A DNA stretch of 64,000 nucleotides from Parcubacteria group bacterium (GCA_041664225.1 JBAYLE010000004.1:10640-74639); one strand, 5' to 3'. Counted from the stretch's first letter, positions 4,253-55,594 are shown. Translations and numbers: made by a program. Notes: generated by a model not told the origin, from the sequence alone.

Positions 4253-4699
4253 ATGAAAAAAAATTATTTAACAATAGTAGCGGGCGCAGCGATAATCTCA
4301 GCAATAGGCGTCTTTATCATCGATTATTTTTCTCACTTGTTATTTTCAAATCCAATGGAGACAGGACCATATTTTGTTGCAAAAGCGGCTGTTTATTTCA
4401 TATTCTCTCTTGTATTCTTATCTGTTATAAATCTGGAGAAAAATGAATTTATTAAGGTGGCGGTTGGCGGAATTATCGTCGCATCGCTTTGGGGAATGTA
4501 TTATAATATTTTCCCATTGCTGTTTAATTACTATCCCTTCGGAATTTCTCTAAGCGGCTTAACTTTTTTAGGAACGGGACTTTTCGGAACTGGTCTTGCT
4601 TTCGGGATTGTTCACACTCTCGCATTTGTAGGTGGATATTATTCTTCTAAATTTATATTCAATTTTTTTGAAAATTTTAAAGTAAAGAGAGCATCATAA
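4253..4699 (+). CDS. Integral membrane protein, unknown function (4 predicted TM)
   Basis: ORF with hydrophobic segments; last gene inside the repeat-bracketed cassette. Confidence 0.55.
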   Translation: MKKNYLTIVAGAAIISAIGVFIIDYFSHLLFSNPMETGPYFVAKAAVYFIFSLVFLSVINLEKNEFIKVAVGGIIVASLWGMYYNIFPLLFNYYPFGISLSGLTFLGTGLFGTGLAFGIVHTLAFVGGYYSSKFIFNFFENFKVKRAS

Positions 4700-4700: not shown

Positions 4701-4789
4701 TTAAATCAGGAATATACACACATTCCCTTTTATTCATAAAAATATTTCCAACATCCTTGACTGTGGCGTGCGGACATAAAAAAGAGGCT
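4701..4789. repeat. 89-bp direct repeat, copy 2
   Basis: Perfect match to 1193-1281. Confidence 0.9.
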
Positions 4790-4806
4790 CCCAAAAGCCT
4801 CTTTTA
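4781..4806 (+). terminator. Intrinsic terminator (aagaggct-cccaaa-agcctctt + TTTT)
   Basis: 8-bp GC-containing stem followed by T-run; uses 3' end of repeat copy 2. Confidence 0.6.
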
Positions 4807-4843: not shown

Positions 4844-4871
4844 TTGACAAAACCAAGATTTCTGATATAAT
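4844..4871 (+). promoter_or_regulatory. Near-consensus sigma70-type promoter (TTGACA-16-TATAAT)
   Basis: TTGACA at 4844-4849, TATAAT at 4866-4871; drives the GC-rich three-gene operon. Confidence 0.6.
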
Positions 4872-4935
4872 GGATTACTCAGTCGAGATGCTGTTTAAAA
4901 TTTGCACAAATCTAACGTACTAGGGGGTACGAATA

Positions 4936-5295
4936 ATGAAGAAGATATTTATATCCGTTGGCGGTGAAAAGCCGGGAAATCCCATGGAGATGGCCCTCAA
5001 GCAGGTGGCCGGTCTCACGCAACAGGTAGTTGATAACCCCGAGGAGGCCGATCTCATTGTGGTCGACTCTGCATCGAATGCTCTCAAGATGTTGAAGGAA
5101 TACGATGAAGCGATCATAGCCGTAGCTTTAATAAGAGAAGCACGCTATGAAGAGCCTGGCGCTCGCTCGCTCAAAGAAGCGTATCCGAAGCAAGTCATTA
5201 TTGCCCAGATGTACAAAACCGAAGATGGAACCGACGATGTTTTATTGGTTCCTTATGTTATGACATTCACAAACGAAAGGAAGGAGAAAAAATAA
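4936..5295 (+). CDS. Small hypothetical protein (119 aa), paralog of 5764-6132; flavodoxin/receiver-like alpha-beta pattern
   Basis: SD AGGGGGT; ~40% identity to third gene of the operon (…NPEEADLIVVDSASNALKMLKE…YPKQVIIAQ vs …NPEAADVIIVSNHSDALRMLKE…YPERIIIGQ). Confidence 0.7.
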   Translation: MKKIFISVGGEKPGNPMEMALKQVAGLTQQVVDNPEEADLIVVDSASNALKMLKEYDEAIIAVALIREARYEEPGARSLKEAYPKQVIIAQMYKTEDGTDDVLLVPYVMTFTNERKEKK

Positions 5296-5296
5296 T

Positions 5297-5767
5297 ATGG
5301 GGAAAAGAATACTTTTAGTGGATGACACAAAAAAGCACAGAAAAGCCGGGATCGCACAGTTGACGGCCTTGGGGCACGAAGTAGTTGCTGTTTCGGGTTA
5401 CGAGGACGCAGTCAATGAGTTGAGGAAGGGTGAAAAGTTTGATATAGCTCTTCTGGATCTGCTGATGCCGGCCGAAGGCATGACGCTGGGCGGCGACGGT
5501 CTCAAATATCTCGGACAGCCAATAGACATCGGTTTCTCACTTGCGATGAAGCTGGCGCTTGAAGGCATCAAGGAAATAGCTGTAGTCACAGACATGGGTC
5601 ATCATTCTCATCCGGCCAGCGCTATCTTCGACTGGTTTTTAGGAAAGAAGCTGACTATTTGCGGAAGCAATGTGCGCTGTATGCATGCGCATATTATCAG
5701 AGATAACGATGATGTGAAAGACTGGGCGGCGGCGCTTGAGTCGCTGTTGGGAGGTGAAGAAGAATGA
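5297..5767 (+). CDS. Atypical response-regulator receiver-domain protein with His/Cys-rich C-terminus
   Basis: ILLVDD…, conserved Asp in FDIALLDLLMP (phospho-acceptor position), VVTDMG; ~25-aa insertion and C-terminal HHSHP…CGSNVRCMHAH; SD AAGGAG; start overlaps previous stop. Confidence 0.65.
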   Translation: MGKRILLVDDTKKHRKAGIAQLTALGHEVVAVSGYEDAVNELRKGEKFDIALLDLLMPAEGMTLGGDGLKYLGQPIDIGFSLAMKLALEGIKEIAVVTDMGHHSHPASAIFDWFLGKKLTICGSNVRCMHAHIIRDNDDVKDWAAALESLLGGEEE

Positions 5768-6132
5768 AGAAAAAGATCCTCATAGCTGTTGATGAAAGCA
5801 AGGCGGAAGGAATCACAAACTCTCTCAAAAGAGCCGCATATTTTTTAGGCAATGAGCTGGTTAATAATCCCGAAGCTGCGGATGTGATTATTGTCAGCAA
5901 TCATTCTGATGCACTCAGGATGCTCAAAGAGAATGATGATGCGACCGTGGTCATTGCTGCCGAGTTCCTTGCGGAAGATAACATCGGCATCAGGACTCTC
6001 AAAGAGAGATATCCGGAGCGTATCATTATCGGACAATATCTCGAGCATTATCTCAAACCGGGAGATGTAATGCTGGTCAATTACATTAAGGATTTAGGAA
6101 AGGAGAATCTGGAAAAGGAGAAAAAGAGTTAA
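5764..6132 (+). CDS. Small hypothetical protein (122 aa), paralog of 4936-5295
   Basis: ATGA overlap with upstream gene; SD GGAGGTG. Confidence 0.7.
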   Translation: MKKKILIAVDESKAEGITNSLKRAAYFLGNELVNNPEAADVIIVSNHSDALRMLKENDDATVVIAAEFLAEDNIGIRTLKERYPERIIIGQYLEHYLKPGDVMLVNYIKDLGKENLEKEKKS

Positions 6133-6165
6133 GGATCTACGCTTAGATCCAAAGAGATTGCAATA

Positions 6166-6200
6166 GGGAGTTTCTCGCGAGAGGGCTCCCGATTTTTTTT
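6166..6200 (+). terminator. Strong intrinsic terminator
   Basis: GGGAG-tt-TCTCGCGAGA-ggg-CTCCC hairpin followed by T8. Confidence 0.8.
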
Positions 6201-6267: not shown

Positions 6268-8049
6268 ATGATTAACACGCAGGAAAAAAATAATGGACTA
6301 GACTTGATCGCGTATTCCAATTGGGCGCTCATTAAGGATGTTGGAAGATTTGTAAAACCATACAAGGGACGCTTCATTTTTGCCAGTCTTTCCAGGTTTG
6401 TCAGTGATATTATCGGCCTATATCCTTCATACGGTTTTGCTTTGATTGTAACTTTTTTTAGTAATTATTCGCCGGGTGATTCATTGAGATATTTTTGGAT
6501 CATAATTATTATTCTAACCGCCGCCTATTTTTTTAAATATATATTTAGATTTTCAGCAAAGCAGGTTGGTTATCAGGTGGCGGAAAAAGTTGCTTTAGAC
6601 GCTCAAACTAAAACAATCAGCCATCTTTTTAGGCTGGATATTGCTTGGCATGAAAGAGAAAATAGCGGCAACAAGCTTAAAAGAATTCAAAAAGGGTCTG
6701 ATGGCCTGAATCGCATTTTACGTATGTGGATAAGTAATTTTATTGAAATTGGGATTAATTTGGTCGGCATGATTTTTATTTTAGGCAAGTTTGATTTGAA
6801 AGTTGGAATGGTGATGGTGCTTTTTGTCCTAACTTACTTTTTTATTTCTTTTTATCTTTTAACAAAGGCGTCTGCCGTTTCACAAGAGGTAGATATTCTC
6901 GAGGAAGGAGTTTTGGGCTTAATGTTTCAGTCGTTGAATAACATCAGAAGCGTTAAGATGCTGGATATGTCAGAAAGAATATTAAAAAAGATCAAACATC
7001 AGATAGGCGGATTATTTCAAAAAATACTGAAAAGAATCACAAGGTTTCAAACTCGGGGAGGCATTCTGAATCTATGGACGACATTATTTCGAGTAGGGGC
7101 AATAATAATAATTGCATATGGCATCATTGACAGAAAATATGAAGTTGGCTTCCTAGTTCTTTTTGTCGGTTATTTTAACAGCCTGGTTGACGCAGTAGAA
7201 GAACTTTCTGAGACTACCCAGGATTTGACTGTCAGTAAATATGGAATTGCCAGAATGCAGCGGACCGTCAACGAACCGATCTTGATCGACAATGAGTCTG
7301 GCAAGGTGGATTGTCCAAAAGATTGGCGAAAAATAAAAGTTATAAATTTATCTTTTGCGTATGGAAAGCGCAAAATTCTCAAAAATATTTCCTTTGAAAT
7401 AAATAGAGGGGAAAGGATTGGAATTATTGGTCTTTCTGGAGCGGGCAAATCAACGCTTATGAAATTGCTCATGAAAGAAAATGAGAATTATGAAGGCGAA
7501 ATCCTGATTGATGATTTATCCATAAAAAAAATAAAGAGAAGGTCGTATTTTGAAAAGTTGGGAGTCGTTTTACAGGACACAGAAGTTTTCAACTTTTCCT
7601 TACGGGAAAACATAATCTTATCCAGTCCAAAAGATTTTGGAGAAAAAGCTCTTAATGAAGCACTTTCCATTTCTTATGTCTCAGATTTTCTATCGAGACT
7701 TCCACAGGGGGTCGAAACCTTTATCGGAGAAAAAGGCATCAGGCTTTCTGGAGGTGAAAGACAAAGACTGGGAATCGCCAGAGCAATTTATAAAAAGCCC
7801 GAAATTCTTCTGTTAGACGAGGCGACTTCACATTTGGATCTCGAATCGGAAGAAAAAATTAAAGATTCTTTGCATAAGTTTTTTCAGAAAGTTACGGCTG
7901 TGGTTATCGCGCACCGATTGACGACGATCCGCCAGATGGACAAGATTCTGGTGATTGAAAAAGGCGAAGTTGTTGAATCCGGGAGTTTCGATGAACTGTA
8001 TAATGCCAAAGGCAGACTTTTTGAATTATGGGAAAAACAAAAATTCTAA
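6268..8049 (+). CDS. ABC exporter, fused permease + ATP-binding domains (MsbA/type-I exporter family)
   Basis: 6 TM N-domain; Walker A GLSGAGKST, signature LSGGERQRLGIARA, Walker B LLLDEATSHLD. Confidence 0.9.
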   Translation: MINTQEKNNGLDLIAYSNWALIKDVGRFVKPYKGRFIFASLSRFVSDIIGLYPSYGFALIVTFFSNYSPGDSLRYFWIIIIILTAAYFFKYIFRFSAKQVGYQVAEKVALDAQTKTISHLFRLDIAWHERENSGNKLKRIQKGSDGLNRILRMWISNFIEIGINLVGMIFILGKFDLKVGMVMVLFVLTYFFISFYLLTKASAVSQEVDILEEGVLGLMFQSLNNIRSVKMLDMSERILKKIKHQIGGLFQKILKRITRFQTRGGILNLWTTLFRVGAIIIIAYGIIDRKYEVGFLVLFVGYFNSLVDAVEELSETTQDLTVSKYGIARMQRTVNEPILIDNESGKVDCPKDWRKIKVINLSFAYGKRKILKNISFEINRGERIGIIGLSGAGKSTLMKLLMKENENYEGEILIDDLSIKKIKRRSYFEKLGVVLQDTEVFNFSLRENIILSSPKDFGEKALNEALSISYVSDFLSRLPQGVETFIGEKGIRLSGGERQRLGIARAIYKKPEILLLDEATSHLDLESEEKIKDSLHKFFQKVTAVVIAHRLTTIRQMDKILVIEKGEVVESGSFDELYNAKGRLFELWEKQKF

Positions 8050-8264: not shown

Positions 8265-9158
8265 ATGAAACATGAAAATATATTAAAAACAATCGGCCAT
8301 ACTCCGATGGTAAAAATTAACAGAATAAATTCGAACAGAAAAATAAATATCTACGCAAAAATTGAGGGTACAAATCCGGGCGGCAGCATCAAGGACCGGA
8401 TCGCACTCAAGATGGTTGAGCAGGCCGAGAAAGAAGGCAAGCTCGCAAAAGACAAAACGATTATTGAAGCGACTTCTGGCAATACCGGCATTGCTCTGGC
8501 TATGATCGGAGCCGTCAAAGGTTATGCTGTCGAAATTGTTATGAGTAAAGCGGTCTCCGCAGAGCGGATAAAAATGATCAAAGCTTTTGGCGCCAGGGTG
8601 ATTTTGACTGACGCGAAACTGGGGACCGATGGCGCGATCAAAAAAGCGCATGAGCTGGCCGAAAAAAATCCGCAAAAATATTTCATGCCCGACCAATTTT
8701 CCAACAAGTACAATAAAATCGCCCATTACGAAACGACAGCCAAAGAAATTTGGAAAGACACGCACGGCAAGATTGATTATTTTGTCGCGGCTATTGGCAC
8801 CTCCGGAACATTGATGGGGGTCGGAGCATATCTCAAAAAATATAATCCGAAGATAAAAATAATCTCAGCCGAACCGGTGAAAGGTCACTACATCCAAGGT
8901 TTGAAAAATATGGAAGAAGCCATTGTGCCGGCAATTTATAAAAAAGAATTGTTGGATGGCGTAATCATGATTGAAACCGAAGAGGCATTTGAGATGGCCA
9001 GAAAAATTGCAAAATTCGAAGGAATCTTTGTCGGGATGTCGAGCGGTGCGGCCATGTTGGCGTCTTTCAAAATCGCCAAGAAAATCAAAAAAGGCAATAT
9101 CGTCACGATTTTTCCCGATCGCGGCGAAAAATATTTGAGCACGGGCTTGTTTGGATAA
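8265..9158 (+). CDS. cysK: Cysteine synthase / O-acetylserine sulfhydrylase (PLP-dependent)
   Basis: GGSIKDRIALKMV (PLP lysine), TSGNTGIALA, GTSGT motifs. Confidence 0.9.
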   Translation: MKHENILKTIGHTPMVKINRINSNRKINIYAKIEGTNPGGSIKDRIALKMVEQAEKEGKLAKDKTIIEATSGNTGIALAMIGAVKGYAVEIVMSKAVSAERIKMIKAFGARVILTDAKLGTDGAIKKAHELAEKNPQKYFMPDQFSNKYNKIAHYETTAKEIWKDTHGKIDYFVAAIGTSGTLMGVGAYLKKYNPKIKIISAEPVKGHYIQGLKNMEEAIVPAIYKKELLDGVIMIETEEAFEMARKIAKFEGIFVGMSSGAAMLASFKIAKKIKKGNIVTIFPDRGEKYLSTGLFG

Positions 9159-10374: not shown

Positions 10375-11869
10375 TTGGGTTTAAATTATGGCGCAATGAA
10401 AAATGTTGAAAATAATGATTATCGAGTGAAGATGTCGAGGCATTTGAAGCAAAAAAAACGAAAAAAGATCATTCTTTCAAAGAGATACTTGAAGGCCAGG
10501 TGGAAGCATTTTCTTAGTCAGGATGTGGACGGAATCTTATTGATAGAGGGAGTAGGGGTAATCGATCTGCAAAAAAAATATGGCACCCCACTGTTTATTT
10601 TGATTGAAGAAGAAATACGCGCAAAGGTGCGTGAATTTATTCACGCATTCGATTATGTTCCATTTAAGATGCGATATGCATCAAAATGCAATTCAAATTT
10701 AGAGGTTCTTAGAATTATTAGGGAAGAAGGAGCTGAATTAGACGCGAGTAGCATCGGAGAAATCATTCTTGGCTTACTAGCTGATTTTTTACCCGAGCAA
10801 ATAAACTTTACTAATTTGTATAAAACTGAGCAGGATATTATGTTTGCTGCCTCTGTTGGGGTACACTCGATAACTCTGGATTCTCTGGAAGAGCTAGATA
10901 TGGCCGTTACTATCTCTGAAAAATTCAAAAAAAGTATCCCAATAATGGTGCGGGTTAATCCAATGATTCACGAGGGTAAGTATAATACGCAACATCAACA
11001 ATACGGCATACCACACGCATATATACGGGGGGGCGTTGATAAAAATAAAAGAGGCAAAATATTTAAAATTAAGAGGATTCCATTTTCATGGATCATATGC
11101 ATACAATCATAGAGGGTATTTTTTGGCAGCGAAGAAAATAACATCCTTGGCGAAATTAGCCGAAAAATATGGACTAAAAATAGACAGCATCGACTTGGGT
11201 GGTGGGTTTCCGATTGAGTCTCCAAAGGCTATGCGACCGGGGAAATATTTTACTTTTAAAGAGTTTGCGGAAAAGTTTGTACCTTTTTTTAAAAAATTAT
11301 GCAAAAAACAAAATCTAGGAAATATTACATTAATATTTGAACCCGGTAAGTCGATTGTGGCTAACTCTGGCATTGGGTTAATACAGGTGGTTAGCCGAAA
11401 GAAATTAAATTCAAAAGAGATGCTAGTTACCAATTCGTCTTGTTATTCTATGTTACCTGACATATTAGTTTCCAAATGTGTTTATGATGTGCTGCCAGCA
11501 AGCAAGATGAAGGCTCCAAGAACGCACGAGTATGATATTGCTGGGTGTACTTGTGATTGCATTGATATTATTAAGAAAAAAGAATTAATGCCTAAGCTGG
11601 AAGGTAACGATTTGTTGGCTGTAATGGATTGTGGCGCGTATAGCTCAGTGTTGAGTTCAAATTTTAATAGTCTCAAGAGAGCACCAGTTATTATGGTAAG
11701 TAGGGATGGCAAAAGTCGACTAGTTCGTCGAGGAGATAGATTCTCCGAGATGTTTGGTCCAGAGTTGGATGTGCTCAAAGTAGCTGATCCGAAAGAGCTT
11801 AAAAAATTTTATAATTTAGCGAGATTAAACATAAATAAAGTTTGGGGAGGGCAAGATAAGAAGCATTGA
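10375..11869 (+). pseudogene. Frameshifted PLP-dependent decarboxylase of the LysA/ornithine-decarboxylase (fold-type III) family
   Basis: N-part (frame 1, to 11112) has YASKCNSN PLP-lysine motif; C-part (frame 2, from ~11036) has FHFHGS, DLGGGFP, EPGKSIVA, CGAYS motifs; +1 frame change located at a G7 homopolymer (11027-11033). Confidence 0.7.
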
Positions 11870-14373: not shown

Positions 14374-14853
14374 TTGAAAAAATGGGAAATCCTATCAATG
14401 ATGTTACAAGGAGAGGAATCGATAATGGGCTATCGGAATTCTTCGGATAGACTCAAAACCCAGTATGAGAATGATTTAGCAGCTATAATTGAGGATGCAA
14501 GGGGAAATATTATAGCCTTTTCAACTCTTTGGGAAACTGAAAGTCCTGATTGGTTGGAATTAGGATCAATATGGACTCATCCCGATTATAGAGGGCGAGG
14601 CTTGGCATCACGTGTGTTTGAGGCTTGTGTTAGAAAATACAAGCAAAAAAATCTTAAAGTCTTTACGATAACACACAATTCAAGAATTGTTCATCTTCTT
14701 AAAAAATATGGATGGCAAGAACGAGGTACTTTGACCTGGGATAAAGTTCCCTTTAGTGTTACTTGCGGTCCATGTGATCGCATCCATGAAAATTTCAAAG
14801 GAACTTGCGTCTTTAAGGCCGTAACTTCAGAGTGCAGGTTGTTTCATGATTAG
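14374..14853 (+). CDS. GNAT family N-acetyltransferase
   Basis: Motif A HPDYRGRGLASRVFEA. Confidence 0.8.
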   Translation: MKKWEILSMMLQGEESIMGYRNSSDRLKTQYENDLAAIIEDARGNIIAFSTLWETESPDWLELGSIWTHPDYRGRGLASRVFEACVRKYKQKNLKVFTITHNSRIVHLLKKYGWQERGTLTWDKVPFSVTCGPCDRIHENFKGTCVFKAVTSECRLFHD

Positions 14854-14933
14854 GATTGAGGGCGATCATCAATTAATTGATAATCGCCCTTTGTATTTTT
14901 ACATTAATAATTTTTTAATAAAATTTAAAAAAA

Positions 14934-15935
14934 ATGAAATATTCAAAAAAAAGACATCTATTGCAACAACTCCCCACAGGAGAGGAGCACTTGATTTTTT
15001 CATACCACTTTAAGGGGAGTAAAAAGGGTCCGAAAATTTATTTACAGGCCAATCTTCATGGACCAGAAATTTTCGGGACATTTTTGTTGGGTAATTTAAT
15101 CAATTACTTGGAGAATAAAAAAGATTTTCCCGGTGAGGTTATAGTAGTTCCCTGCGCTAATCCGATAGCAGTTAACTCTGTAGCTTACAATTCTATTATT
15201 GGAAGATATAATTTGCAATCAGGAAAAAATTGGAATAGAAATTTTGATGTTGATGCCGAATTTAAAGATCATGGAGAGGAAAAAAAATACTATGTCAAGC
15301 AATTGAAAGAGAGCAGTCTTCCGATTGAAAAAAGGATTTCAGCTATATTGAAACTAATAAGTTCCAATGCTGGTTATATTATAGACATACATACATCGGG
15401 ATCGGAGAGCATAGTGCATTTGTTTACATTTGCCGAATCAAATGAAGTATTTCTTCCGCTTAAGGCCCAAGTGCATATTAACCTTAATTATGATGGTGCC
15501 GTAGGCGCCTTTGATGAATCTAAGGTCGTACCGTTTGTCAATTCATTGTCTAAGTCTGAACTGCCGCATGTTTGTACATGGGAAGCATCTCGTCATGGAC
15601 ACATGAACCAAGAACAAATCGGGAAAAAAACTAAAGAACTTATTAGGTTTTTAGAATCAGTTTGGGTGAAAAATAAAGTAAAGCGTAAAGTTTTACCGAA
15701 AATATTTTCAATCGACAATTCTGATTATCTAGTTTCTCCCGCCAGCGGTTATTACTGCTGGAGAAAAAATGCCGGCACAATCATCAATAAAGGAGAAGTT
15801 TTCGCTGAAGTTTATCAACCATCATCAAATAAAAGAATAGAACTCAGGGCTGATTTTAAATTTATTTTAATTGCTAAATATGGAATCGGAGCTATTGGAA
15901 GAGGTGAACAGATCGGCTGGATGGCTCGATATTAG
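14934..15935 (+). CDS. Succinylglutamate desuccinylase / aspartoacylase (AstE/AspA) family zinc deacylase
   Basis: LQANLHGPEIFG (His-x-x-Glu zinc site) and IDIHTSG motifs typical of the family. Confidence 0.6.
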   Translation: MKYSKKRHLLQQLPTGEEHLIFSYHFKGSKKGPKIYLQANLHGPEIFGTFLLGNLINYLENKKDFPGEVIVVPCANPIAVNSVAYNSIIGRYNLQSGKNWNRNFDVDAEFKDHGEEKKYYVKQLKESSLPIEKRISAILKLISSNAGYIIDIHTSGSESIVHLFTFAESNEVFLPLKAQVHINLNYDGAVGAFDESKVVPFVNSLSKSELPHVCTWEASRHGHMNQEQIGKKTKELIRFLESVWVKNKVKRKVLPKIFSIDNSDYLVSPASGYYCWRKNAGTIINKGEVFAEVYQPSSNKRIELRADFKFILIAKYGIGAIGRGEQIGWMARY

Positions 15936-16194
15936 TTGTCTCTTGATATGTAGCAAGGCTAACTCAAAGCAAAAATGGTTTTCCGGTCGCGCGGAGGCGG
16001 AATGCATCAAGACGGAGAATGGGTGGACATCCAGTCGCTAATAAAATTTCAGGCCATAATCCTCAATTTTTTGAGAGAAGCGTAGTGTTTTTTAAAGGGA
16101 TGATCAATTGGCCATCCTTTTTGCTAACTAAATTTCTTTGTGCTATTATTTGGCTAGTTTTAAATAAGGGCATTTTATTTCTAATTTTAACACT

Positions 16195-17469
16195 ATGCAA
16201 AAAGAATCAATTTATAAAAAAGTAGCTTCTCATGAAGCAAAAAAGGGAGAATTTAGTAAATGTCTTCTGCTCTACTCAGGCGGCTTGGACACATCTGTAA
16301 TGCTGAAATGGATTCAGGAAAATTATGAGTGCGAGGTTGTTGCTCTAACGATAGACATTGGCCAAACAGCCGATGATCTCGAATCTATAAAGCAGAAAGG
16401 ATTAAATTTGGGAGCAAAAGATGTAATTATTTATGATGCAAAAGATGAGTTTGCTGATGTTCTTCTTGTTGAGGCAATCAAGGCAAACTCTGATTATCAA
16501 GGAGGCTATGCCTTAAGCACACCGCTTGGAAGGGTTATTATTTCTAAAATTGCGATAGAAGTTGCTAAGCAATATGGTTGTGAGGTTATCGCTCATGGCT
16601 GTACCGGCAAAGGAAATGATCAGGTGAGATTTGAGGGATATCTAACAACGCTGAATCCCAAAATAAAAACTATCGCACCGGTCAGGGAGTGGTCAATGGG
16701 AAGACAAGAAGAAATTGAATATGCGGAAAAACACGGGATTCCAGTAAAGCAACAGAAGGATAAACCATATTCTTACGATGAAAACATGTGGGGAAATACT
16801 GGAGAAGGAGGGGAAATAGAAGATCCAAAACTTATTCCACCACTAAAAAATATTTTACAATGGTGTAAAACTCCCGAGGAATCTCCTGATAAAGAAGAAA
16901 TTATGGAAATTGAATTTTATCAAGGTGTGCCAATTTCATTGAGCGGCCAAAAAATGAAACTGAGCGAGTTAATCATGCAGTGCAATAAAATTGGGGGCTC
17001 GCATGGCGTTGGCGTTTTTCATCTTATTGAAGATAGGATTGTTGGCTTAAAAGTAAGAGGAATTTACGAGAATCCGGGAGCGAGTATTCTGATTGCTGCT
17101 CATAAAAAGCTGGAACAATTAGTATCCACCAGAGAAGAGAACGAACTCAAGTCATTTATAGACAATAAATGGGCGTACTTAACATATGGTGCGAAATGGT
17201 ATGATCCAGCCATGTATCATATCCGTGCCTATATCGGCAGTCAAAATAAAAAGGTTACTGGGAAAGTGAAAGTGAAGCTTTTCAAGGGTAACATAACCGT
17301 GGTTGCGCTGGAATCACCCTATTCACTATTTAATGCTGATCTCGCAACATTTGAAAAAAATGCAACATTCAATCAAAACGCATCTGCCGGATTTATAGAG
17401 ATATATAATCTTGCTCAAAAAACAGCATTTAATGTGTACAGTTTTGAGGATGATTTGTTAAAAAAATAA
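16195..17469 (+). CDS. argG: Argininosuccinate synthase
   Basis: PP-loop LLYSGGLDTSV; length and C-terminal domain consistent. Confidence 0.9.
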   Translation: MQKESIYKKVASHEAKKGEFSKCLLLYSGGLDTSVMLKWIQENYECEVVALTIDIGQTADDLESIKQKGLNLGAKDVIIYDAKDEFADVLLVEAIKANSDYQGGYALSTPLGRVIISKIAIEVAKQYGCEVIAHGCTGKGNDQVRFEGYLTTLNPKIKTIAPVREWSMGRQEEIEYAEKHGIPVKQQKDKPYSYDENMWGNTGEGGEIEDPKLIPPLKNILQWCKTPEESPDKEEIMEIEFYQGVPISLSGQKMKLSELIMQCNKIGGSHGVGVFHLIEDRIVGLKVRGIYENPGASILIAAHKKLEQLVSTREENELKSFIDNKWAYLTYGAKWYDPAMYHIRAYIGSQNKKVTGKVKVKLFKGNITVVALESPYSLFNADLATFEKNATFNQNASAGFIEIYNLAQKTAFNVYSFEDDLLKK

Positions 17470-17473
17470 CTTA

Positions 17474-18688
17474 ATGAAAATAAAAAAAGCTAATAAAAAA
17501 ATTTGGCAATTTTCAGGCGCCTCATTGCTGCATCCATTAGTGGAGAAATTTACGGTAGGGGATGATTATTTGTTTGACCAAAAACTCATTCCGTATGACA
17601 TTCAAGCAAGCTTAGCCCATACTGAAATGTTGAAAAAAATTAAAATTATTACAAATACTGAATTCGGTACTCTTAAAAAGGGACTGCAGGAGATCTTAAC
17701 GCAATGGGAGAAAGGAAAATTTGTTATACGACAAAACCAAGAAGACGGGCATACTGCAATCGAACAATTTTTAACTGATAAGTATGGAGAAGTTGGAAAA
17801 AAAATACATACCGGAAGAAGCAGAAATGACCAATCGCTTGTTATGTTGAGGCTGTATATGAAGAATCAGCTGCTTCTTATTGAAAAAATTGTTACTAAAA
17901 TTGAGAAATCATTAGACAAAAAAATTAGGAAAACAAAAGATATTCCAATGCCTGGATACACGCATATGCAAAAAGCAATGCCAACAACAGTTGGAGTATG
18001 GCTAGATTCTTACTTATCCGCGATTGATGACTGTTTGTTTTTAATAAAAGCTATTAAAAAGATGATCGACCAAAATCCCCTAGGTTCTGCTTCTGGATTT
18101 GGAATTATTAATTTTCCACTAGATAGAGATTTGACTACTAAAATTTTGAAATTTGCAAAAACACAAAAAAACCCGATGTATTGCGGATTTTCCAGAGGAT
18201 ACTTTGAAAATATCGTTCTGCAAACATTGTCGAATATTATGATAATCTTTGGGAGATTTGCAAATGATATGGTGATGTTTACAACCCAAGAATTTAATTT
18301 TTTCTCATTACCAGACAATTTTACAACAGGATCTTCTATTATGCCTCAAAAAAGAAATTACGATGTTTTTGAAATAATGAGAGGAAATACAAAAGTCTTT
18401 TGTTCTTTTCAGAATCAAATTCAAAATATCATATCTTCACTCGGAAGTGGTTATAATAGAGATTTGCAATTGACCAAAAAACCTTTTGTTCTAGCAACCA
18501 GCTTATGCGTGTCTACCTGTGAATTAATGCTAGAAATAATAAGTAATTTTAAAATTCATAAAAAATCCCTAAATAAAGCAATGACAAAAGATCTTTTTAT
18601 TACAAATGAAGTTTATGAATTGGTCAAGGATGGTAAAAATTTTAGAGATGCCTATTTGGAAATTAAGGAAAAATGGAATAAAAAATAA
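17474..18688 (+). CDS. argH: Argininosuccinate lyase (fumarate-lyase superfamily), somewhat short
   Basis: HTGRSRNDQ and signature GSSIMPQKRN. Confidence 0.85.
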   Translation: MKIKKANKKIWQFSGASLLHPLVEKFTVGDDYLFDQKLIPYDIQASLAHTEMLKKIKIITNTEFGTLKKGLQEILTQWEKGKFVIRQNQEDGHTAIEQFLTDKYGEVGKKIHTGRSRNDQSLVMLRLYMKNQLLLIEKIVTKIEKSLDKKIRKTKDIPMPGYTHMQKAMPTTVGVWLDSYLSAIDDCLFLIKAIKKMIDQNPLGSASGFGIINFPLDRDLTTKILKFAKTQKNPMYCGFSRGYFENIVLQTLSNIMIIFGRFANDMVMFTTQEFNFFSLPDNFTTGSSIMPQKRNYDVFEIMRGNTKVFCSFQNQIQNIISSLGSGYNRDLQLTKKPFVLATSLCVSTCELMLEIISNFKIHKKSLNKAMTKDLFITNEVYELVKDGKNFRDAYLEIKEKWNKK

Positions 18689-24528: not shown

Positions 24529-25635
24529 TTGCTTTTATTTATGGCGGAGAAAACAGCAAAAATTAACAGGAAAAATAGTAATCCAAATGGCATTCATTAC
24601 CTCATTGAATTTTTTGGGTGTGAGGCGGAGCAAATAGACTCCGTCGATTTTTGGAAAAAAATTCTTCCCGAAGCAGTCAAGGGAACAACGATGGGAGTGC
24701 TGCATAGTTATTTCCATAAATTTAATCCGAAAGGAGTTACAGGCTTTCTTCTCTTATCATCGTCCCATATTTCGGTGCATACTTGGCCAGAAAATGGATA
24801 TGTAGCTTGTGATATTTTTACTTGCTCCAGCAAAAAAGAAACTGATTTGGTTCTCGCGAGACTAACTGAAGGCGTGATCCATGATCATGCAAACATAGAA
24901 AAAGTTAATCGCGGATACCAATTCTTAAATCTGCCGATTTTTTGCAACGGGGATATGATGAAGATTGAGATAAATAAAGTTTTACATGAAGTTCAATCTG
25001 ATTTTCAAAAAATAGTCATTGCTGACACAAAGGAATATGGAAAATGCTTGATTATCGATGACGTGATGCAAACTGCTGAAACTGATCATGAAATCTATGA
25101 TAGTGAAATGCTTAGGCAAATGAAAAAAACCGATAAAAACATCTTGATTCTAGGTGGTGGAGATGGCTATGTTGCACAAATAGCTTTGCGAAACAATCCG
25201 AAGCTCAATATTGATATAATAGATTTAGATATTGAAGTGGTGAAGAGTGCTCAAAAATTTTTGAACCAGGTTGTTTTTGATGACAAAAAAGTTAATTTGT
25301 CCATCGGAGATGCGTTACATTTTTTGAAAGTCGGAGATAAGTTATATGATGGAATCGCGTGTGATCTGACGGATACGCCCATTGGTACTAAAAAAGAAGC
25401 AATTGAGTTCAAAAAGTTTTTCGAAAAGATCCTTGCGCTTTCAAAAAATAGATTGAGAAATGGAGGATGGGTGAGCGTCCAAAGTGGAGCTTCTTGCACA
25501 GCGGAAGGCTTCATTGATGAAGCGGCTATTATTGAAAAAATACTTCAGGTAAATTTTACAGACATAACTCGCAGTGATGTTTTTATACCGAGTTATGGTG
25601 AATCTTGTGCTTTTTTGTTCGGTAAAAAGGCGTAA
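24529..25635 (+). CDS. Fusion: class-1b S-adenosylmethionine decarboxylase proenzyme (SpeH/SpeD) + spermidine synthase (SpeE)
   Basis: N-domain HYLIEFFGCE…SSSHISVHTWPENGYVACDIFTC; C-domain ILGGGDGYVAQ, CDLTDTPIG. Confidence 0.8.
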   Translation: MLLFMAEKTAKINRKNSNPNGIHYLIEFFGCEAEQIDSVDFWKKILPEAVKGTTMGVLHSYFHKFNPKGVTGFLLLSSSHISVHTWPENGYVACDIFTCSSKKETDLVLARLTEGVIHDHANIEKVNRGYQFLNLPIFCNGDMMKIEINKVLHEVQSDFQKIVIADTKEYGKCLIIDDVMQTAETDHEIYDSEMLRQMKKTDKNILILGGGDGYVAQIALRNNPKLNIDIIDLDIEVVKSAQKFLNQVVFDDKKVNLSIGDALHFLKVGDKLYDGIACDLTDTPIGTKKEAIEFKKFFEKILALSKNRLRNGGWVSVQSGASCTAEGFIDEAAIIEKILQVNFTDITRSDVFIPSYGESCAFLFGKKA

Positions 25636-26953: not shown

Positions 26954-28645
26954 ATGTGCAACTCCGCACCACAATTACTTTATTATACATACATCCCAGT
27001 TTTAGTGGGGACACTTGTATTGGGCTTCTTAGTTTTTTTGAGCAATAGAAAAAATTTAAGCGGTCGTCTGTTTTTTTTATTATCCATAAATACTTCCCTA
27101 TGGATTTTTTTGAATATGATGACTTGGCGGAGCGTGAATCTTGATAGCGTAGAGTTTTTCGATAAGCTCTCCATAGTAGGGATTATTGTGCCGGCAATAT
27201 TTCTCTATTTCAGCTATGTTTTTCCAGATGAAAAAAATATATCGATGAAGAAGGCCATGATCATATTTCTGCCTCTTTTGCCTTTCATCTTTTTAGCAGC
27301 GACAAGTCTTAATATTAAGTCAATTAATTCCTCAACTTCTGATTGCGAGTCGGTTGTGGGCCCACTTTATTATTTAATCCCCCTGATTTTTATTTTGTAT
27401 TGTGTGTGGTCGGTAGTTATTTTATTTACAAAATTTAGAAACGGAAATGAACAGGCAAAAAAACAAATAAAACTTGTACTGGTGGGATTTGTGATTTTTA
27501 TAGTGTGGGCAACCATTACCAATGTAGTCGCTCAACTAGTTGGTCCTGATAGTCTTTCCTTTTTTGGTCCCATTGGAGCAATAATTTTTATGTCTTTTGT
27601 TGCTTATGCAATCGTCAAATACCAGCTTCTAAGTATAAAGCTTATTGCTGCTCAAGCATTGACAGTCGTGATTTGGATATTGGTTGCTTCACAATACTTT
27701 TTTACAGACTCAACTACAAATATAATTCTCATAACCTTTACACTTCTCCTTTCAATTGGCTTTGGCATAATGCTCGTTAAATCTGTCAAACTCGAAGTTA
27801 AGCGCAAAGAAGAACTTCAGCAGATGTCAGACAAACTGTCGGAAGCCAATGATCAGTTGCGGAAATTGGATAATTCCAAATCGGAATTTATTTCCATCGC
27901 CTCTCATCAGTTGCGCACCCCCCTCACTGCCATCAAGGGCTTTGTTTCATTGCTTTTGGAAGGATCGTATGGCCAAGTTGTTCCCAAACAGCAGGATGTT
28001 TTGAATAAGGTATATACATCAAACGAGCGGCTAGTGACGCTGGTTGAAGATCTTTTGAACATTTCTCGCATGGAATCAGGAAGAATGGAATTTAAATTCG
28101 CGCCGTGGAACATGGAAACGGTCTGCCAGGAAGTCATGGACACTTTCATCCAGCGGGCTAAGTTTGAAAAGAAGTCTTTGGAATTCAAAAAGCCGGAAAT
28201 TCCTCTGCCGGAAGTCATGATTGATGGCACGAAAGTGCGGGAAGTTATTTCCAATATGGTGGACAACGCTTTGAAATATACGCCGAAAGGGGGAGTTACC
28301 CTCAAAGTTGAGCAGGCTGACGCGTCGCGCTACACGCCGAATAAAAATGGAGACATTGAGGACAAACCGATTGTTGGTCCGGTTATTCGCGTCACGGTTT
28401 CCGATACGGGCATTGGAATTCCAGTTACCGAATTGCCATATCTCTTTGCTAAGTTTTCCCGCGGCAAAGACGTTTCGCGCTTGAACACCGGTGGAACCGG
28501 GCTGGGCCTCTATGTCGGCCGTTCCATGATTGAAAACAACGGCGGCAAAATCTGGGCCGAATCAGACGGCGAAGGCCAAGGCTCGCGCTTCATCATTGAA
28601 ATCCCGATGCACCAGAGCAAGGAGCTGATGGAAAGGTGGGGATAA
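26954..28645 (+). CDS. Sensor histidine kinase with N-terminal multi-TM (7TM-type) sensing domain
   Basis: H-box SHQLRTPLTAIKGF, N-box NALKYT, DTGIGI, GGTGLGL ATP lid. Confidence 0.9.
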   Translation: MCNSAPQLLYYTYIPVLVGTLVLGFLVFLSNRKNLSGRLFFLLSINTSLWIFLNMMTWRSVNLDSVEFFDKLSIVGIIVPAIFLYFSYVFPDEKNISMKKAMIIFLPLLPFIFLAATSLNIKSINSSTSDCESVVGPLYYLIPLIFILYCVWSVVILFTKFRNGNEQAKKQIKLVLVGFVIFIVWATITNVVAQLVGPDSLSFFGPIGAIIFMSFVAYAIVKYQLLSIKLIAAQALTVVIWILVASQYFFTDSTTNIILITFTLLLSIGFGIMLVKSVKLEVKRKEELQQMSDKLSEANDQLRKLDNSKSEFISIASHQLRTPLTAIKGFVSLLLEGSYGQVVPKQQDVLNKVYTSNERLVTLVEDLLNISRMESGRMEFKFAPWNMETVCQEVMDTFIQRAKFEKKSLEFKKPEIPLPEVMIDGTKVREVISNMVDNALKYTPKGGVTLKVEQADASRYTPNKNGDIEDKPIVGPVIRVTVSDTGIGIPVTELPYLFAKFSRGKDVSRLNTGGTGLGLYVGRSMIENNGGKIWAESDGEGQGSRFIIEIPMHQSKELMERWG

Positions 28646-31764: not shown

Positions 31765-32994
31765 ATGAAACAATCGCAACTTTTTACCAAGACTCAAAAA
31801 GACGCGCCGAAGGACGAGGTGAGCGTGAACGCGCAACTTTTGATCCGGGCCGGCTTTGTGGACAAACTCATGGCGGGAGTTTACACATTTTTGCCGTTGG
31901 GGCTCCGCGTCATGAAAAAGATTGAAAATATCATCCGCGAAGAAATTAACGCGATCGGCGGACAAGAAATTTTTATGCCAACCTTGCAACCGAAGGAAAA
32001 CTGGCTGAAAACCGGGCGCTGGGACACGATGGATGATTTGTATAAGGTGAAAGACGCGAGTGGCAAAGAATTCGCGCTCGGGCCGACGCACGAAGAAATC
32101 GTGGTGCCTTTGGCGCAAAAATATATCAATTCCTACCGAGACTTTCCGTTTTATGCCTATCAATTCCAAAATAAATTTCGGATGGAACTACGCGCGAAAT
32201 CCGGCATCTTGCGCGGGCGGGAATTTATGATGAAAGATTTATATTCTTTCCATTTGAGCGAAGATGATTTTAACGCATATTACGAAAAAGCGGCCAAAGC
32301 TTATGAAAAGATTTTTCAGAGAACAGGGATTGGCGAAAAAACTTACAAGACTTTTGCTTCGGGTGGATCTTTTTCCAAGTATTCGCACGAATACCAAACG
32401 GTGACGCCGGCCGGTGAAGACCTGATTCATATCTGTAACCAGTGCGGACTGGCGATCAATGAGGAGATAAAAGGCGAGGTTGATGTTTGTCCGAGCTGCA
32501 AGGGCGCGGATTTCCGCAAAGAAAAAGCCATTGAGGTGGGAAATATTTTTAATTTGAAAAACAAATATACCCAGCCGTTCGATTTCAAAATAAAAGACGA
32601 AAAAGGCGAGGAAAAAGAAGTGATCATGGGTTGTTATGGTCTGGGACTCTCGCGGCTCATGGGAACAATCGTGGAAGTTTTTCACGACGATAAAGGCATT
32701 ATCTGGCCGGAATCGGTCGCGCCTTTCAAAGTGCATTTGATCAGTTTGGGCAAAAACGACGAGGCAGAAAAAATTTATAACGACCTAATAAAAAAGAGCG
32801 TGGAAGTTTTGTTTGATGACCGAGAGGAAACAGCTGGCAAGAAATTTGCTGACAGCGATCTCATTGGCATTCCGTACCGCATTGTTGTGAGCGAAAAATC
32901 ATTGCAATCTGGTGGCGTAGAAATTAAAAAAAGAAACCAAAAAGAGACTGAAATTATAAACCAAAATAGTATTATTGAAAAATTGAATGCCTAA
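31765..32994 (+). CDS. proS: Proline--tRNA ligase, compact bacterial type without INS editing domain, with zinc-ribbon insert
   Basis: LLIRAGFVDKLMAGVYTFLPLGLRV, motif 2 REFMMKDLYSFH, CNQCG…CPSCKG, C-terminal anticodon-binding domain. Confidence 0.85.
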   Translation: MKQSQLFTKTQKDAPKDEVSVNAQLLIRAGFVDKLMAGVYTFLPLGLRVMKKIENIIREEINAIGGQEIFMPTLQPKENWLKTGRWDTMDDLYKVKDASGKEFALGPTHEEIVVPLAQKYINSYRDFPFYAYQFQNKFRMELRAKSGILRGREFMMKDLYSFHLSEDDFNAYYEKAAKAYEKIFQRTGIGEKTYKTFASGGSFSKYSHEYQTVTPAGEDLIHICNQCGLAINEEIKGEVDVCPSCKGADFRKEKAIEVGNIFNLKNKYTQPFDFKIKDEKGEEKEVIMGCYGLGLSRLMGTIVEVFHDDKGIIWPESVAPFKVHLISLGKNDEAEKIYNDLIKKSVEVLFDDREETAGKKFADSDLIGIPYRIVVSEKSLQSGGVEIKKRNQKETEIINQNSIIEKLNA

Positions 32995-34284: not shown

Positions 34285-35082
34285 ATGACCAAACTTATTC
34301 TTGTTGAAGATGATCCGATGATCTCTGAGATTTATCAGAAAAAGTTTATTGATGCCGGTTTCGAAGTTTTTCTGGCGGAATCAGGAGAACAAGCCATAAA
34401 TATCGCCAAAAAAGAAACGGTGGACGCGGTGATCACTGATTTGATTATGCCCAAAATGGATGGTTTCGAATTGATTAAAAATTTACGGAGCGGCGATTTC
34501 GATCCTAGCATAAAAATAATCGTTTCCAGCAATCTGAGCCAAAAAGATGATCGTGATAAGGCTCTGCATTTGGGGGCGAATGGATTTTTAGCCAAATCTG
34601 ATTTTAGCCCGAGCGAGCTGGTGGCTGAAGTAAAAAGGTTGCTTGACCAATATCGTGAGCAGCAAAAAAATCTTGCCAAGCAGGAGAAGGCTCCCGATGA
34701 AATTGCCAGAAAAGGAGCCAAGCGGATTTTGATGATTGAGGACGAGGAGATAATTATCGAAATGTTTGTGGACAAACTTGAGCAGGAAGGTTTTGCGGTT
34801 TCGATTGCAAGAAATGGCGCCTGGGGAGTAAAGGAAGCGATGAAAGAAAATTTTGATTTGTTTATCATTGACATGGTGATGCCGGCGATGACGGGCGAGG
34901 AAATGATCGCCAAATTAAAAATGGAAGAAAAGACCAAAAATATTCCCATCATTGCTTTCTCAGCTTCCGTAGAAAATGAAATTATGCGGAGAGTTGAGGA
35001 AATGGGCGTACAAGCTTTTTATCAAAAAACGCAAATAACACCGAGCGAATTGGTAAACAAAGTTGAGGAGTTATTGAAATAA
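34285..35082 (+). CDS. Response regulator with two tandem receiver domains, no output domain
   Basis: LILVEDDPMI…DAVITDLIMPKMDGFEL and ILMIEDEEII…DLFIIDMVMPAMTGEEM. Confidence 0.85.
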   Translation: MTKLILVEDDPMISEIYQKKFIDAGFEVFLAESGEQAINIAKKETVDAVITDLIMPKMDGFELIKNLRSGDFDPSIKIIVSSNLSQKDDRDKALHLGANGFLAKSDFSPSELVAEVKRLLDQYREQQKNLAKQEKAPDEIARKGAKRILMIEDEEIIIEMFVDKLEQEGFAVSIARNGAWGVKEAMKENFDLFIIDMVMPAMTGEEMIAKLKMEEKTKNIPIIAFSASVENEIMRRVEEMGVQAFYQKTQITPSELVNKVEELLK

Positions 35083-35124: not shown

Positions 35125-36444
35125 ATGGAAAGAAAATTAGTCAGCGAAACGCCGGAATTGGTCGGCCAAACTGTAAAATTGGCAGGCTGGGTCAATGTTC
35201 GCCGCGATCATGGCAAGCTTATTTTTATCGATTTGCGCGACCGGAGCGGCATGATCCAGATGGTAATTATTCCTGATAAAGAAGAAGCATACAAAATCGC
35301 GAAAGAAGTCCGCAGTGAGTTTGTGATTGAGATCGAAGGGTTGGTAAAGCAAAGACCAGGCGGTGCGGCGAAAGCCGGGATGGCTACCGGCGGGGTGGAG
35401 ATTGAAGTGGAAAAAATGAACGTTTTAGCCAAGCCGGAAGGCGAATTGCCGGTGGATATTTCGGAAGATGATTTTAATCTGCATCTGGACACGCTTTTAG
35501 ATAATCGCGTGCTGACGCTTCGTAATGAAAAAGTAAAAGCAATTTTCCGCATCTATTCTGAAATCCTGAAGGACTATGCTGATTTCATGAAACGGGAGGG
35601 ATTTACAGAAATAAAAACGCCGAAAATTTTAAGCGCGGCGACAGAGGGCGGGGCTAATTTTTTCAAAATAAAATATTTTGAGCGGGAAGCCTATCTAGCT
35701 CAGAGCCCGCAATTTTACAAGCAGGCAGGCGTGGGCGTCTTTGAAAGAGTGTTTGAGATCGGTTCGGTTTTTCGGGCGGAACCGCACTATACGACGCGGC
35801 ATGTCAATGAATATATCGGTATGGATGCGGAAATGGGGTTTATCAACAGTTTTGAAGACGTGATGGACGAGCTGGAAAAAACAATGGCGTATATTATGGA
35901 ATCAATAGTCAGGGATTGCGCCAAGGATCTGGAAAGATACAAAGTCGAAATTTTGCCGGTCGCCGCAATTCCGCGGATAAAGCTGACGGAAGCATTGGAA
36001 ATTTTAGACAAAGAGTTCGGTAAAAAAATGGATGCGATTGATATTGATGCCGAAGGAGAAAGAATGATCGGGGAATGGGCGTTGAAAGAACATGGCAGTG
36101 AATTTGTCTTTCTCACACATTATCCAGCCAATATCCGGCCCTTTTACTCGATGCCGAGCGCCGATCCGCAATATACGGAAACTTTTGATCTTATATACAA
36201 AGGTGTCGAGATTGCGAGCGGTGGGCAGAGAATTCATGATTATCATCAGCTCGTGGCAAATATTAAAAAGCACAAACTGAAACCGGAGGATTTTGAACAT
36301 TATCTGGATATTTTCAAATACGGCATGCCGCCGCACGGCGGCTGGGGTCTGGGTTCGGAAAGAATCGTCCAGAGAATGCTTGGGCTTAAAAGCATCAAGG
36401 AAGCCATTCTTTTTCCGCGCGATGTAAAAAGGTTGACGCCATAG
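35125..36444 (+). CDS. aspS: Aspartate--tRNA ligase, short archaeal/class IIb type
   Basis: LAQSPQFYKQ, motif 3 GMPPHGGWGLGSERIVQ; 439 aa without bacterial GAD insertion. Confidence 0.85.
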   Translation: MERKLVSETPELVGQTVKLAGWVNVRRDHGKLIFIDLRDRSGMIQMVIIPDKEEAYKIAKEVRSEFVIEIEGLVKQRPGGAAKAGMATGGVEIEVEKMNVLAKPEGELPVDISEDDFNLHLDTLLDNRVLTLRNEKVKAIFRIYSEILKDYADFMKREGFTEIKTPKILSAATEGGANFFKIKYFEREAYLAQSPQFYKQAGVGVFERVFEIGSVFRAEPHYTTRHVNEYIGMDAEMGFINSFEDVMDELEKTMAYIMESIVRDCAKDLERYKVEILPVAAIPRIKLTEALEILDKEFGKKMDAIDIDAEGERMIGEWALKEHGSEFVFLTHYPANIRPFYSMPSADPQYTETFDLIYKGVEIASGGQRIHDYHQLVANIKKHKLKPEDFEHYLDIFKYGMPPHGGWGLGSERIVQRMLGLKSIKEAILFPRDVKRLTP

Positions 36445-36496
36445 ATAGTTTTCAGTTTTTAGTAAAAAAACGATACCAATTCTAACAAATACAAAA

Positions 36497-49032: not shown

Positions 49033-49608
49033 ATGGCAGAAGATAAAAAAATAAAAATTTTAATTATTGATGACGATGATGCTACACGAAGCCTGTATGC
49101 GGAGGTTTTTAAAAGACATGGTTTTGATGTTGCCGAAGCAGTCGATGGCGTGGAAGGTCTCGACAAAGCATCAATAAATATTCCCGATGTCATTTTTACC
49201 GGAATAATTATGCCACGGATGGACGGTTTCGCTTTGATGGAGGCTCTAAAGAAAAATATGGTGACCAGCAGTATCCCAGTAGCTGTTTCTTCACATATGG
49301 GTCGGGAAGAAGATCAAAAAAGGGCAAAGGAATTAGGAGCCGGTGATTTCATCCCAAGGGATATGAATACCCCAAATGAAGTGGTGGAGCGGATAAAGGT
49401 TATGCTTAATCTGGCTAAATATAAGATAAAATTTTATACTGATGAGCTGGATGCGTTGAAATTAGCACAGGATATGCATCTTAATGAAAAATTTCAGTGT
49501 GCCTCTTGCGGAGGGGAAGCAATCTTGTCCTTGCATCTAAAAGAGGTGGCCAGCCATGAATTCATCGCTAAATTCGTGTGTTCCAAATGCGGAAAGGAAC
49601 AAGACTGA
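49033..49608 (+). CDS. Receiver-domain protein with C-terminal zinc-ribbon (CxxC…CxxC)
   Basis: ILIIDDDDATR…DVIFTGIIMPRMDGFAL; CASCGGEA…CSKCGKEQD. Confidence 0.8.
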   Translation: MAEDKKIKILIIDDDDATRSLYAEVFKRHGFDVAEAVDGVEGLDKASINIPDVIFTGIIMPRMDGFALMEALKKNMVTSSIPVAVSSHMGREEDQKRAKELGAGDFIPRDMNTPNEVVERIKVMLNLAKYKIKFYTDELDALKLAQDMHLNEKFQCASCGGEAILSLHLKEVASHEFIAKFVCSKCGKEQD

Positions 49609-52207: not shown

Positions 52208-52216
52208 TCTTTTTTT

Positions 52217-55591: not shown

Positions 55592-55594
55592 TTT

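Follow-up and report, generated by a model that had tools for sequence, protein, structure and literature searches.

Within a 64,000-nt stretch of a Parcubacteria group bacterium genome (GCA_041664225.1, JBAYLE010000004.1:10640-74639; hereafter the window), three small genes and their expression signals occupy positions 4,844 to 6,200, and the middle gene resembles a CheY-type receiver. An earlier note on this DNA had described a compositionally foreign, probably horizontally acquired operon in which duplicated partner proteins flank an atypical receiver, and had suggested a phospho-relay or partner-switching module. The locus thus raises the questions of whether the operon is foreign to its genome, what the three proteins are, which part of the arrangement is conserved, and how the proteins would work together.

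Operon Structure and Expression Signals

The locus is a real tricistronic operon, native and self-contained in having its own promoter and terminator. The first gene, g1 (4936-5295, + strand), corresponds to locus tag WCX17_02200 and encodes a 119-aa partner protein of the upstream type; g2 (5297-5767, +) encodes a 156-aa stand-alone atypical receiver (REC) identical to the WCX17_02205 product; and g3 (5764-6132, +) encodes a second partner paralog of 122 aa, of the downstream type. The TAA stop of g1 (5293-5295) is 1 base apart from the g2 ATG at 5297, and the g2 stop overlaps the g3 start in an ATGA (5764-5767). Each gene is preceded by a Shine-Dalgarno (SD)-like purine-rich run (GGGGG at 4923-4927 for g1, AAGGAG at 5281-5286 for g2, and GGAGGTG at 5750-5756 for g3), consistent with the three translationally coupled genes of the earlier description.

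The proposed near-consensus promoter was also recovered: a sigma-70-type promoter (4844-4871, +) with TTGACA, a 16-nt spacer containing an extended TG, and TATAAT matches the consensus at 12/12 positions. The 5' leader as read from the sequence (4872-4935, +), which contains the g1 SD, folded no better than shuffled sequence (z = +0.2) and had no match in Rfam. Downstream of g3, a small hairpin (6133-6150, +) precedes an intrinsic terminator with a GGGAG...CUCCC stem (6166-6190, +) and a U8 tract (6193-6200, +). The 68 nt 3' of the stop codon (6133-6200) fold with -25.1 kcal/mol (z = -3.24 against shuffles, with 1/200 shuffles as good), in agreement with the strong terminator noted before; it was missed by a simple terminator scan because of its long loop.

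Base Composition and Origin

The GC contents of g1 (0.464), g2 (0.497), and g3 (0.423) compare with 0.403 for the window and a gene mean of 0.412 (sd 0.034; 60 long ORFs), such that g2 alone is extreme and g3 is average. When each gene was simulated from its own amino acid sequence using the synonymous codon usage of the window, the excess in third-position GC (GC3) amounted to z = +2.2 for g1, +2.0 for g2, and +1.8 for g3 (+3.5 pooled), an excess that is equalled or exceeded by at least nine other window genes (e.g., 8265-9158, 31765-32994, 35125-37708, and 51779-56851). First codon positions of the operon genes are GC-high (0.52-0.59) because the encoded proteins are rich in Ala, Gly, Asp, Glu, and Val. 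The contrast visible by eye is attributable to the flanking genes (4253-4699 and 6268-8049), which are unusually AT-rich (z about -3), and the GC peak recurs over the receiver gene of a related trio (locus L065; see below). Thus, the operon is indeed G+C-richer than its surroundings insofar as g1 and g2 lie above the window mean and each gene has a GC3 excess of about 2 sd, but this does not extend to the GC content of g3 and owes its prominence to AT-rich neighbors. The GC contrast is real but local and is no marker of foreign DNA.

No mobility genes adjoin the operon. Homologs of g2 are overwhelmingly from Patescibacteria, the host lineage (a few bins carry other labels), and a scan of viral contigs yielded no phage-borne module, the single match being an ordinary CheY-like receiver beside a hybrid kinase. 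This distribution indicates that the family is native to Patescibacteria. Because the composition of the operon falls inside the range of the other genes of the window, which served as background, and its homologs belong to Patescibacteria, the operon does not stand out as a horizontal island, and the earlier proposals of foreign composition and probable horizontal acquisition are not upheld. Composition-based horizontal transfer was rejected on the window GC, the GC3 simulations, and the L065 GC peak.

Receiver: Fold and Conserved Residues

Structural comparison assigns g2 a (βα)5 receiver fold, with signalling receivers as its only structural neighbors. By sequence, residues 5-59 alone match Pfam Response_reg (PF00072), with 25.4 bits, below the gathering cut-off of 30.2; PDB and CheY profile comparisons likewise end at approximately residue 59, and the C-terminal 60% of the protein is not recognizable as REC. 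Many g2 homologs do have a precomputed PF00072 match. The g2 family is large and uniform, comprising at least 121 clusters with proteins nearly all of 143-161 aa, from Uhr-, Morani-, Magasaniki-, Sung-, Adler-, and Kerfeldbacteria, Paceibacterota, and other lineages of the candidate phyla radiation (CPR).

An alignment of 27 diverse homologs (mean column identity 57%) retains the DxxMP motif and contains the following invariant positions: D9, D10, L22, Y35, A51, L52, D54, L55, M57, P58, E60, G73, G79, V96, T98, H102, H103, H105, P106, D112, K141, W143, and L147. R15, H27, D99, S108, A109, and H130 are near-invariant, and a KHRxAG motif in α1 is strongly conserved. The signature of the family is T-D-x-x-H-H-x-H-P in the β4-α4 loop, beside the phospho-site, together with K141-D-W143 before α5.

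The active site of a receiver consists of five residues (DD, D, T, K), and the loss of any one of them defines a pseudo-receiver (PMC12632262). The g2 family strictly retains four of the five: the acidic pair after β1 (D9, D10), the phospho-acceptor Asp after β3 (D54, which pairs with CheY D57 in hhalign), and the Ser/Thr at the end of β4 (T98, which closes predicted strand 93-98 and pairs with CheY T87 when hhalign is run with relaxed settings, in a region of low confidence). No conserved Lys follows the predicted β5 (118-121) in the 27-homolog alignment. When the family was aligned by hhalign with CheY and a small receiver alignment, the non-conserved K117 paired with K109, with C-terminal confidence near zero. 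The invariant K141 lies approximately 20 residues past the canonical Lys position, immediately before α5; judging solely from the V-K-D-W motif, set against V-K-P-F of CheY, and from secondary structure, it may replace CheY K109.

Spacing differs from that of CheY in both halves (D54-T98, 44 residues vs. 30; T98-K141, 43 vs. 22), owing to two insertions, of approximately 14 aa after β3 and approximately 21 aa between α4 and α5. The first insertion and the His triad loop are the low-confidence parts of the g2 model (pLDDT 57-63; approximately 63 for the loop). The earlier characterization of g2 as an atypical CheY-like receiver with a phospho-acceptor Asp context is therefore supported by the fold and by the alignment of D54 with CheY D57. 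Extra sequence is present as described, but as two insertions rather than one of about 25 aa; and of the His/Cys-rich tail, the His triad (H102/H103/H105) and H130 are conserved and the cysteines are not.

Partner Family: g1 and g3

The products of g1 and g3 are 40% identical (E = 2e-21), in keeping with the paralogy claimed for them. A word-index homolog search with g1 gave just three, later 13 proteins, and the family emerged only when a profile of 14 sequences was run exhaustively with HMMER: it then comprised 139 cluster representatives (50% identity), almost all of them stand-alone proteins of 100-135 aa. K54 is the sole invariant residue; A38, A49, L50, P84, and R86 are near-invariant. 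Scans of g1, g3, and 18 homologs against Pfam, NCBIfam, and PADLOC gave nothing above noise, and the g1 family profile found no match among PDB sequences, such that the paralogs belong to no described family, as the earlier note had supposed. They are members of an uncharacterized α/β family of approximately 120 aa.

The AlphaFold2 model (pLDDT 88) is a small three-layer α/β sandwich of five strands and four helices, with a short β2-β3 link. Its fold scores are those of a generic three-layer α/β sandwich, corresponding to a generic flavodoxin-like fold only, and Foldseek found no match at E <= 1e-3. The flavodoxin- or receiver-like alternation previously attributed to these proteins is thus apparent in the general fold but has no counterpart in sequence: neither g1 nor g3 matches a flavodoxin, universal stress protein, or ordinary CheY profile. 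Both lack all five receiver active-site residues and appear to be one helix short of (βα)5. A descent of g1 and g3 from degenerate receiver copies was considered and is not demonstrable by sequence, as hhalign found no homology between the g1 and g2 families (probability 3%).

Conserved Partner-Receiver Pair

The g2 profile retrieved 62 genome loci, of which 20 have a g1-type gene directly upstream of a short-type receiver, with stop and start abutting. When contigs of close relatives and metagenome loci are included, a g1-type gene directly precedes the receiver at 25/26 short-type loci with upstream sequence; at one of these (L021) the upstream match is weak (E = 8e-4), and the remaining locus (L029) may encode a fusion (E = 0.025). 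At least three clear fusion proteins, L024 (341 aa), L026 (348 aa), and P0265 (287 aa), join a g1-like N-terminal domain to an HHxHP receiver C-terminal domain, with L029 as a possible fourth; L024 and L026 are from Bdellovibrionota-labelled MAGs. One outlier (P0228) has a g1-like domain fused to an AAA_5 ATPase, and its next gene is not a receiver. The combination of adjacency, translational coupling, and fusion is strong evidence that partner and receiver function together, as the earlier note had proposed, and the two most likely form a complex. Across these loci, the conserved unit indicated by gene order is a two-gene pair, partner then receiver, translationally coupled and mainly from Patescibacteria/CPR.

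A second partner gene downstream of the receiver, with overlapping stop and start, was found in the window and at L065 only. The L065 receiver is 81% identical to g2 and its downstream partner 56% identical to g3; that trio has a promoter-like TTGATT-16-TATAAT with TG approximately 70 nt upstream, and its own terminator. A partial metagenome sequence (L069) encodes a further protein with 57% identity to g3, which forms a separate clade with g3 and its L065 ortholog. No receiver lies downstream of the L069 gene, in keeping with a position at the end of a trio, of which it is probably the second partner copy. At L063, with a receiver 79% identical to g2, the pair occurs alone. The occurrence of the trio in just two or three sequences, compared with more than 25 simple pairs, identifies the partner-receiver-partner order as a duplication specific to a subclade. 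Duplicated partners around a receiver, which had been taken as the defining layout, are therefore a local elaboration confined to the window, L065, and probably L069.

Genomic Neighborhood

Clustering of neighboring ORFs across approximately 46 related loci revealed no recurrent histidine kinase or Hpt protein linked to the receivers. The sole kinase of the window, a 7TM HisKA-HATPase_c protein (26954-28645), lies 21 kb from the operon, such that neither the operon nor its neighborhood co-encodes a kinase in the manner of a classical two-component system; the window also encodes a REC-REC protein (34285-35082) and a REC protein (49033-49608). The immediate neighbors of the operon are unrelated (a PAS-GAF protein, a P-type ATPase, a cupredoxin, an ABC exporter, and a PLP enzyme). 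Across the related loci, the only other recurrent neighbors are TrmB-family HTH regulators (Pfam PF01978; approximately 25 loci), mostly beside longer relatives of g2 (long-type receivers), although TrmB-type genes are also near at least five pair-containing loci. The gene order at L006, L008, and L019 is TrmB, long-type receiver, partner, short-type receiver. Neither a TrmB gene nor a long-type receiver was found within the window.

Proposed Function and Alternatives

The reading that we favor, with a probability of roughly 0.55, is that g2 is a single-domain, divergent response-regulator receiver acting as a phospho-switch, with g1 and g3 as paralogous copies of its obligate partner. In this scheme, g2 would be phosphorylated on D54 by an unlinked histidine kinase (e.g., that at 26954-28645) or by a small-molecule phosphodonor. 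Phosphorylation would remodel the β4-α4 / α4-β5-α5 face of g2, where the His triad loop peculiar to the family and the second insertion are located, and would thereby change the engagement of the partner(s). In the subclade represented by the window, duplication of the partner would leave g2 a choice of two partners, A and A'. The output would most plausibly be transcriptional, as suggested by the repeated position of relatives beside TrmB-type HTH regulators. Strict retention of the Mg2+- and phosphoryl-binding residues in a very divergent domain argues for retained phospho-chemistry; against the phospho-switch stand the lack of a linked kinase, the non-conservation of the canonical Lys, and a C-terminal 60% that cannot be recognized as REC. 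In addition, g1 and g3 are fast-evolving (K54 being the only invariant residue), in contrast to the high conservation of g2, whose strongly conserved surfaces (e.g., the α1 KHRxAG motif) may therefore serve some other partner.

The main rival to the phospho-switch is that g2 does not switch by phosphorylation at all and binds a metal through H102/H103/H105 and H130 with D99, D112, E60, and possibly the acidic pocket, serving as a phosphorylation-independent pseudo-receiver scaffold or sensor (of metal or redox state) or as a small hydrolase, with g1 and g3 as subunits. We consider this a less likely alternative. The four conserved His cluster near the β4-α4 loop and the strand end at 124-130, and some long-type relatives contain CxxCxGxG zinc-ribbon-like insertions; the unconserved canonical Lys and the lack of a linked cognate kinase also accord with it, and under the published definition (PMC12632262) the loss of that Lys would make g2 a pseudo-receiver. 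However, the invariance of DD, D, T, and DxxMP over deep CPR lineages is what retained phosphoryl/Mg2+ chemistry would predict. In long-type relatives T-N takes the place of H130, and one long-type paralog (at L006) has lost two of the three His of the triad. No known metallo-hydrolase resembles g2, its structural neighbors all being signalling receivers. A further reading is that the pair is a signalling device that has not been described before, is largely specific to CPR, and needs no histidine kinase of its own, in which the His triad binds a metal or is an internal phospho-acceptor or catalyst, the partner (a new family) is a dedicated effector or modulator, and the duplicated partner creates a two-output switch; we judge this unlikely. 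Were the pair a kinase-independent or metal-coupled switch, it would represent a new mechanism in receiver-domain signalling; otherwise, it would be another orphan single-domain response regulator with a lineage-specific adaptor.

The remaining alternatives concern the partners and the origin of the operon. That g1 and g3 are small flavodoxin-like or SLOG-like sensors or effectors that bind a nucleotide or cofactor and carry the real biochemical activity, with the receiver merely regulating them or being regulated, would fit an invariant Lys54 and a near-invariant Arg86 that could bind an anionic ligand, as well as the family member fused to an AAA_5 ATPase with no receiver adjacent. We consider it improbable: glycine-rich loops for nucleotides or cofactors are absent from the family, which also matches no family of that type by sequence, the generic fold scores and the Foldseek result at E <= 1e-3 lend it nothing specific, and the conserved residues, judging from predicted secondary structure, appear to be located along the N-terminal edge of the sheet and not at the C-terminal edge where ligands are usually bound. 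Least probable of all is a cassette for partner switching or phospho-relay that is foreign in composition, was acquired horizontally, and is defined by two paralogs flanking a receiver. Its own promoter and terminator, GC and GC3 above the window mean (pooled GC3 z = +3.5), and a genomic context that varies among close relatives could be taken in its favor; they are outweighed by the window genes of equal or higher GC3 excess, the average GC of g3, the AT-rich flanks, the matching L065 peak, homologs that are overwhelmingly from Patescibacteria with no phage-borne copy in the viral-contig scan, and the rarity of the flanked layout. Moreover, Pfam and NCBIfam scans of g1, g2, and g3 gave no signature of a STAS domain, an RsbW-type anti-sigma kinase, or a PP2C phosphatase, such that the partner-switching assignment is not supported; the sole match of that kind was a sub-threshold RsbU_N in the Pfam scan (12.7 bits vs. 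a cut-off of 25.5).

Comparison With Known Systems

The evidence points to receiver-domain signalling in which neither the partner family nor the signature of the receiver subfamily has been described before, and shows no mechanism beyond the known repertoire; the partner-receiver module did not turn up in our literature searches, which covered response regulators of Patescibacteria/CPR, TrmB, and pseudo-receivers. Genomes of Patescibacteria/CPR are small, and their regulatory proteins are almost entirely unstudied. The definition of a compact, widely conserved two-gene signalling module offers residues for direct testing: D54, T98, H102, H103, H105, and K141 of the receiver, and K54 and R86 of the partner.

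Like g2, the single-domain response regulators CheY, Spo0F, and DivK (PF00072) have a stand-alone receiver fold without an output domain, an acidic pair, a phospho-acceptor Asp in a DxxMP context, and a Thr ending β4; proteins of this type act via protein-protein contacts. Unlike them, g2 is recognizable only over its first 59 or so residues, with a score below the Pfam gathering threshold, and has two insertions (approximately 14 and 21 aa), an invariant TDxxHHxHP loop, KDW before α5 in place of a Lys directly after β5, no linked kinase, and an obligate co-encoded partner of an undescribed family. RsbV/RsbW/RsbU partner switching similarly involves small co-transcribed regulatory proteins with possible alternative partners, but scans of the operon for a STAS domain, a GHKL serine kinase, or a PP2C phosphatase were negative.

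The fused proteins L024, L026, and P0265, in which a roughly receiver-like α/β domain precedes a real receiver, bear a likeness to tandem receiver/pseudo-receiver proteins. PleD (REC-REC') and FrzZ are architectures of this kind that are comparable with the fused forms. An adaptor pseudo-receiver combined with a phosphorylatable receiver is the arrangement that the fusions recall (for pseudo-receivers, see the review PMC12632262), although g1 and g3 differ from tandem receivers in not being detectable as receivers by sequence and in usually being separate polypeptides.

Further counterparts are the long-type HHxHP receivers, an uncharacterized CPR module (loci L021-L046) that shares with g2 the series DLLMP ... 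TDxNHHxHP ... KDW/KNW and sometimes adjoins the g1-g2 pair (L006, L008, and L019). In contrast to g2, the long-type receivers have 170-280 aa, extra insertions (some with CxxCxGxG zinc-ribbon-like segments), and no g1-type partner, and most have a TrmB HTH gene divergently upstream.

Long-Type Receivers and a Fusion Protein

In addition to the short, operon-type receivers, the receivers with a conserved His triad loop (HHxHP) include a second subfamily of longer proteins (170-280 aa), found in related loci L021-L046 from other genomes (examples are L042:3998-4639 and L008:1602-2420). The insertions in these long-type receivers are large, and some contain DnaJ-like CxxCxGxG motifs; a divergently transcribed TrmB-family regulator accompanies the receiver almost without exception. 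CPR bins contain the subfamily, as do two archaeal bins (L047 and L050). A match to the g1 family of partner proteins, P0228 (846 aa; L072:305-2845), combines an AAA_5 (MoxR/dynein-like) ATPase domain with a C-terminal g1-like domain; the gene immediately following it in L072 does not encode a receiver.

Genomic Context of the Operon

The operon promoter begins 39 nt past the end of the second copy of a 105-nt direct repeat (1193-1297 and 4701-4805), and the two copies, which share 94% identity including 89 nt without any mismatch, flank a 3.5-kb cassette encoding a P-type ATPase, a cupredoxin and a membrane protein. The 3' end of each copy is a terminator-like hairpin, with a loop and 3' arm that are not alike between the copies. 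No further copies were found in the window, and an Rfam search with the repeat gave no match. Possible readings of the repeat are a 3' UTR or terminator module that was duplicated, a small RNA, and a scar left when the cassette inserted.

Markedly low G+C at third codon positions (GC3 of 0.27-0.37) characterizes the genes at 14374-18688, as well as those at 4253-4699, 6268-8049, 11036-11869 and 24529-25635, with z of -3 to -6 relative to the expectation from amino-acid-matched simulations using the synonymous codon usage of the window. One of them, 17474-18688, also departs further in codon usage than any other gene of the window (zB = 5.0). As candidates for atypical or acquired DNA, these genes come ahead of the operon, which the earlier note had considered probably horizontally acquired.

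Canonical two-component parts are encoded on the same contig, namely a 7TM-HisKA-HATPase_c kinase (26954-28645), a tandem REC-REC protein (34285-35082), and a REC protein whose C-terminal tail carries CxxC...CxxC (49033-49608); none of them adjoins the operon.

Other Features of the Window

Greedy longest-ORF selection across 1-64000 gave approximately 60 long ORFs, all but one on the + strand; the sole - strand ORF is short (10653-10928) and overlaps a + strand ORF. Two + strand ORFs, 10375-11112 and 11036-11869, overlap out of frame with each other. The Orn/Arg decarboxylase N-terminal domain is matched by two proteins of the window; if these are the products of the two overlapping ORFs, the pair would fit a frameshifted or split decarboxylase gene.

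ORF 4-1164 encodes a sensor-like protein without an output domain. Within it, a 111-nt unit occurs three times at 63-nt spacing, with the copies overlapping (433-669), and encodes a KSKKKMEGRLADSYQHSKDQ-like 21-aa repeat that is situated between the PAS and GAF domains.
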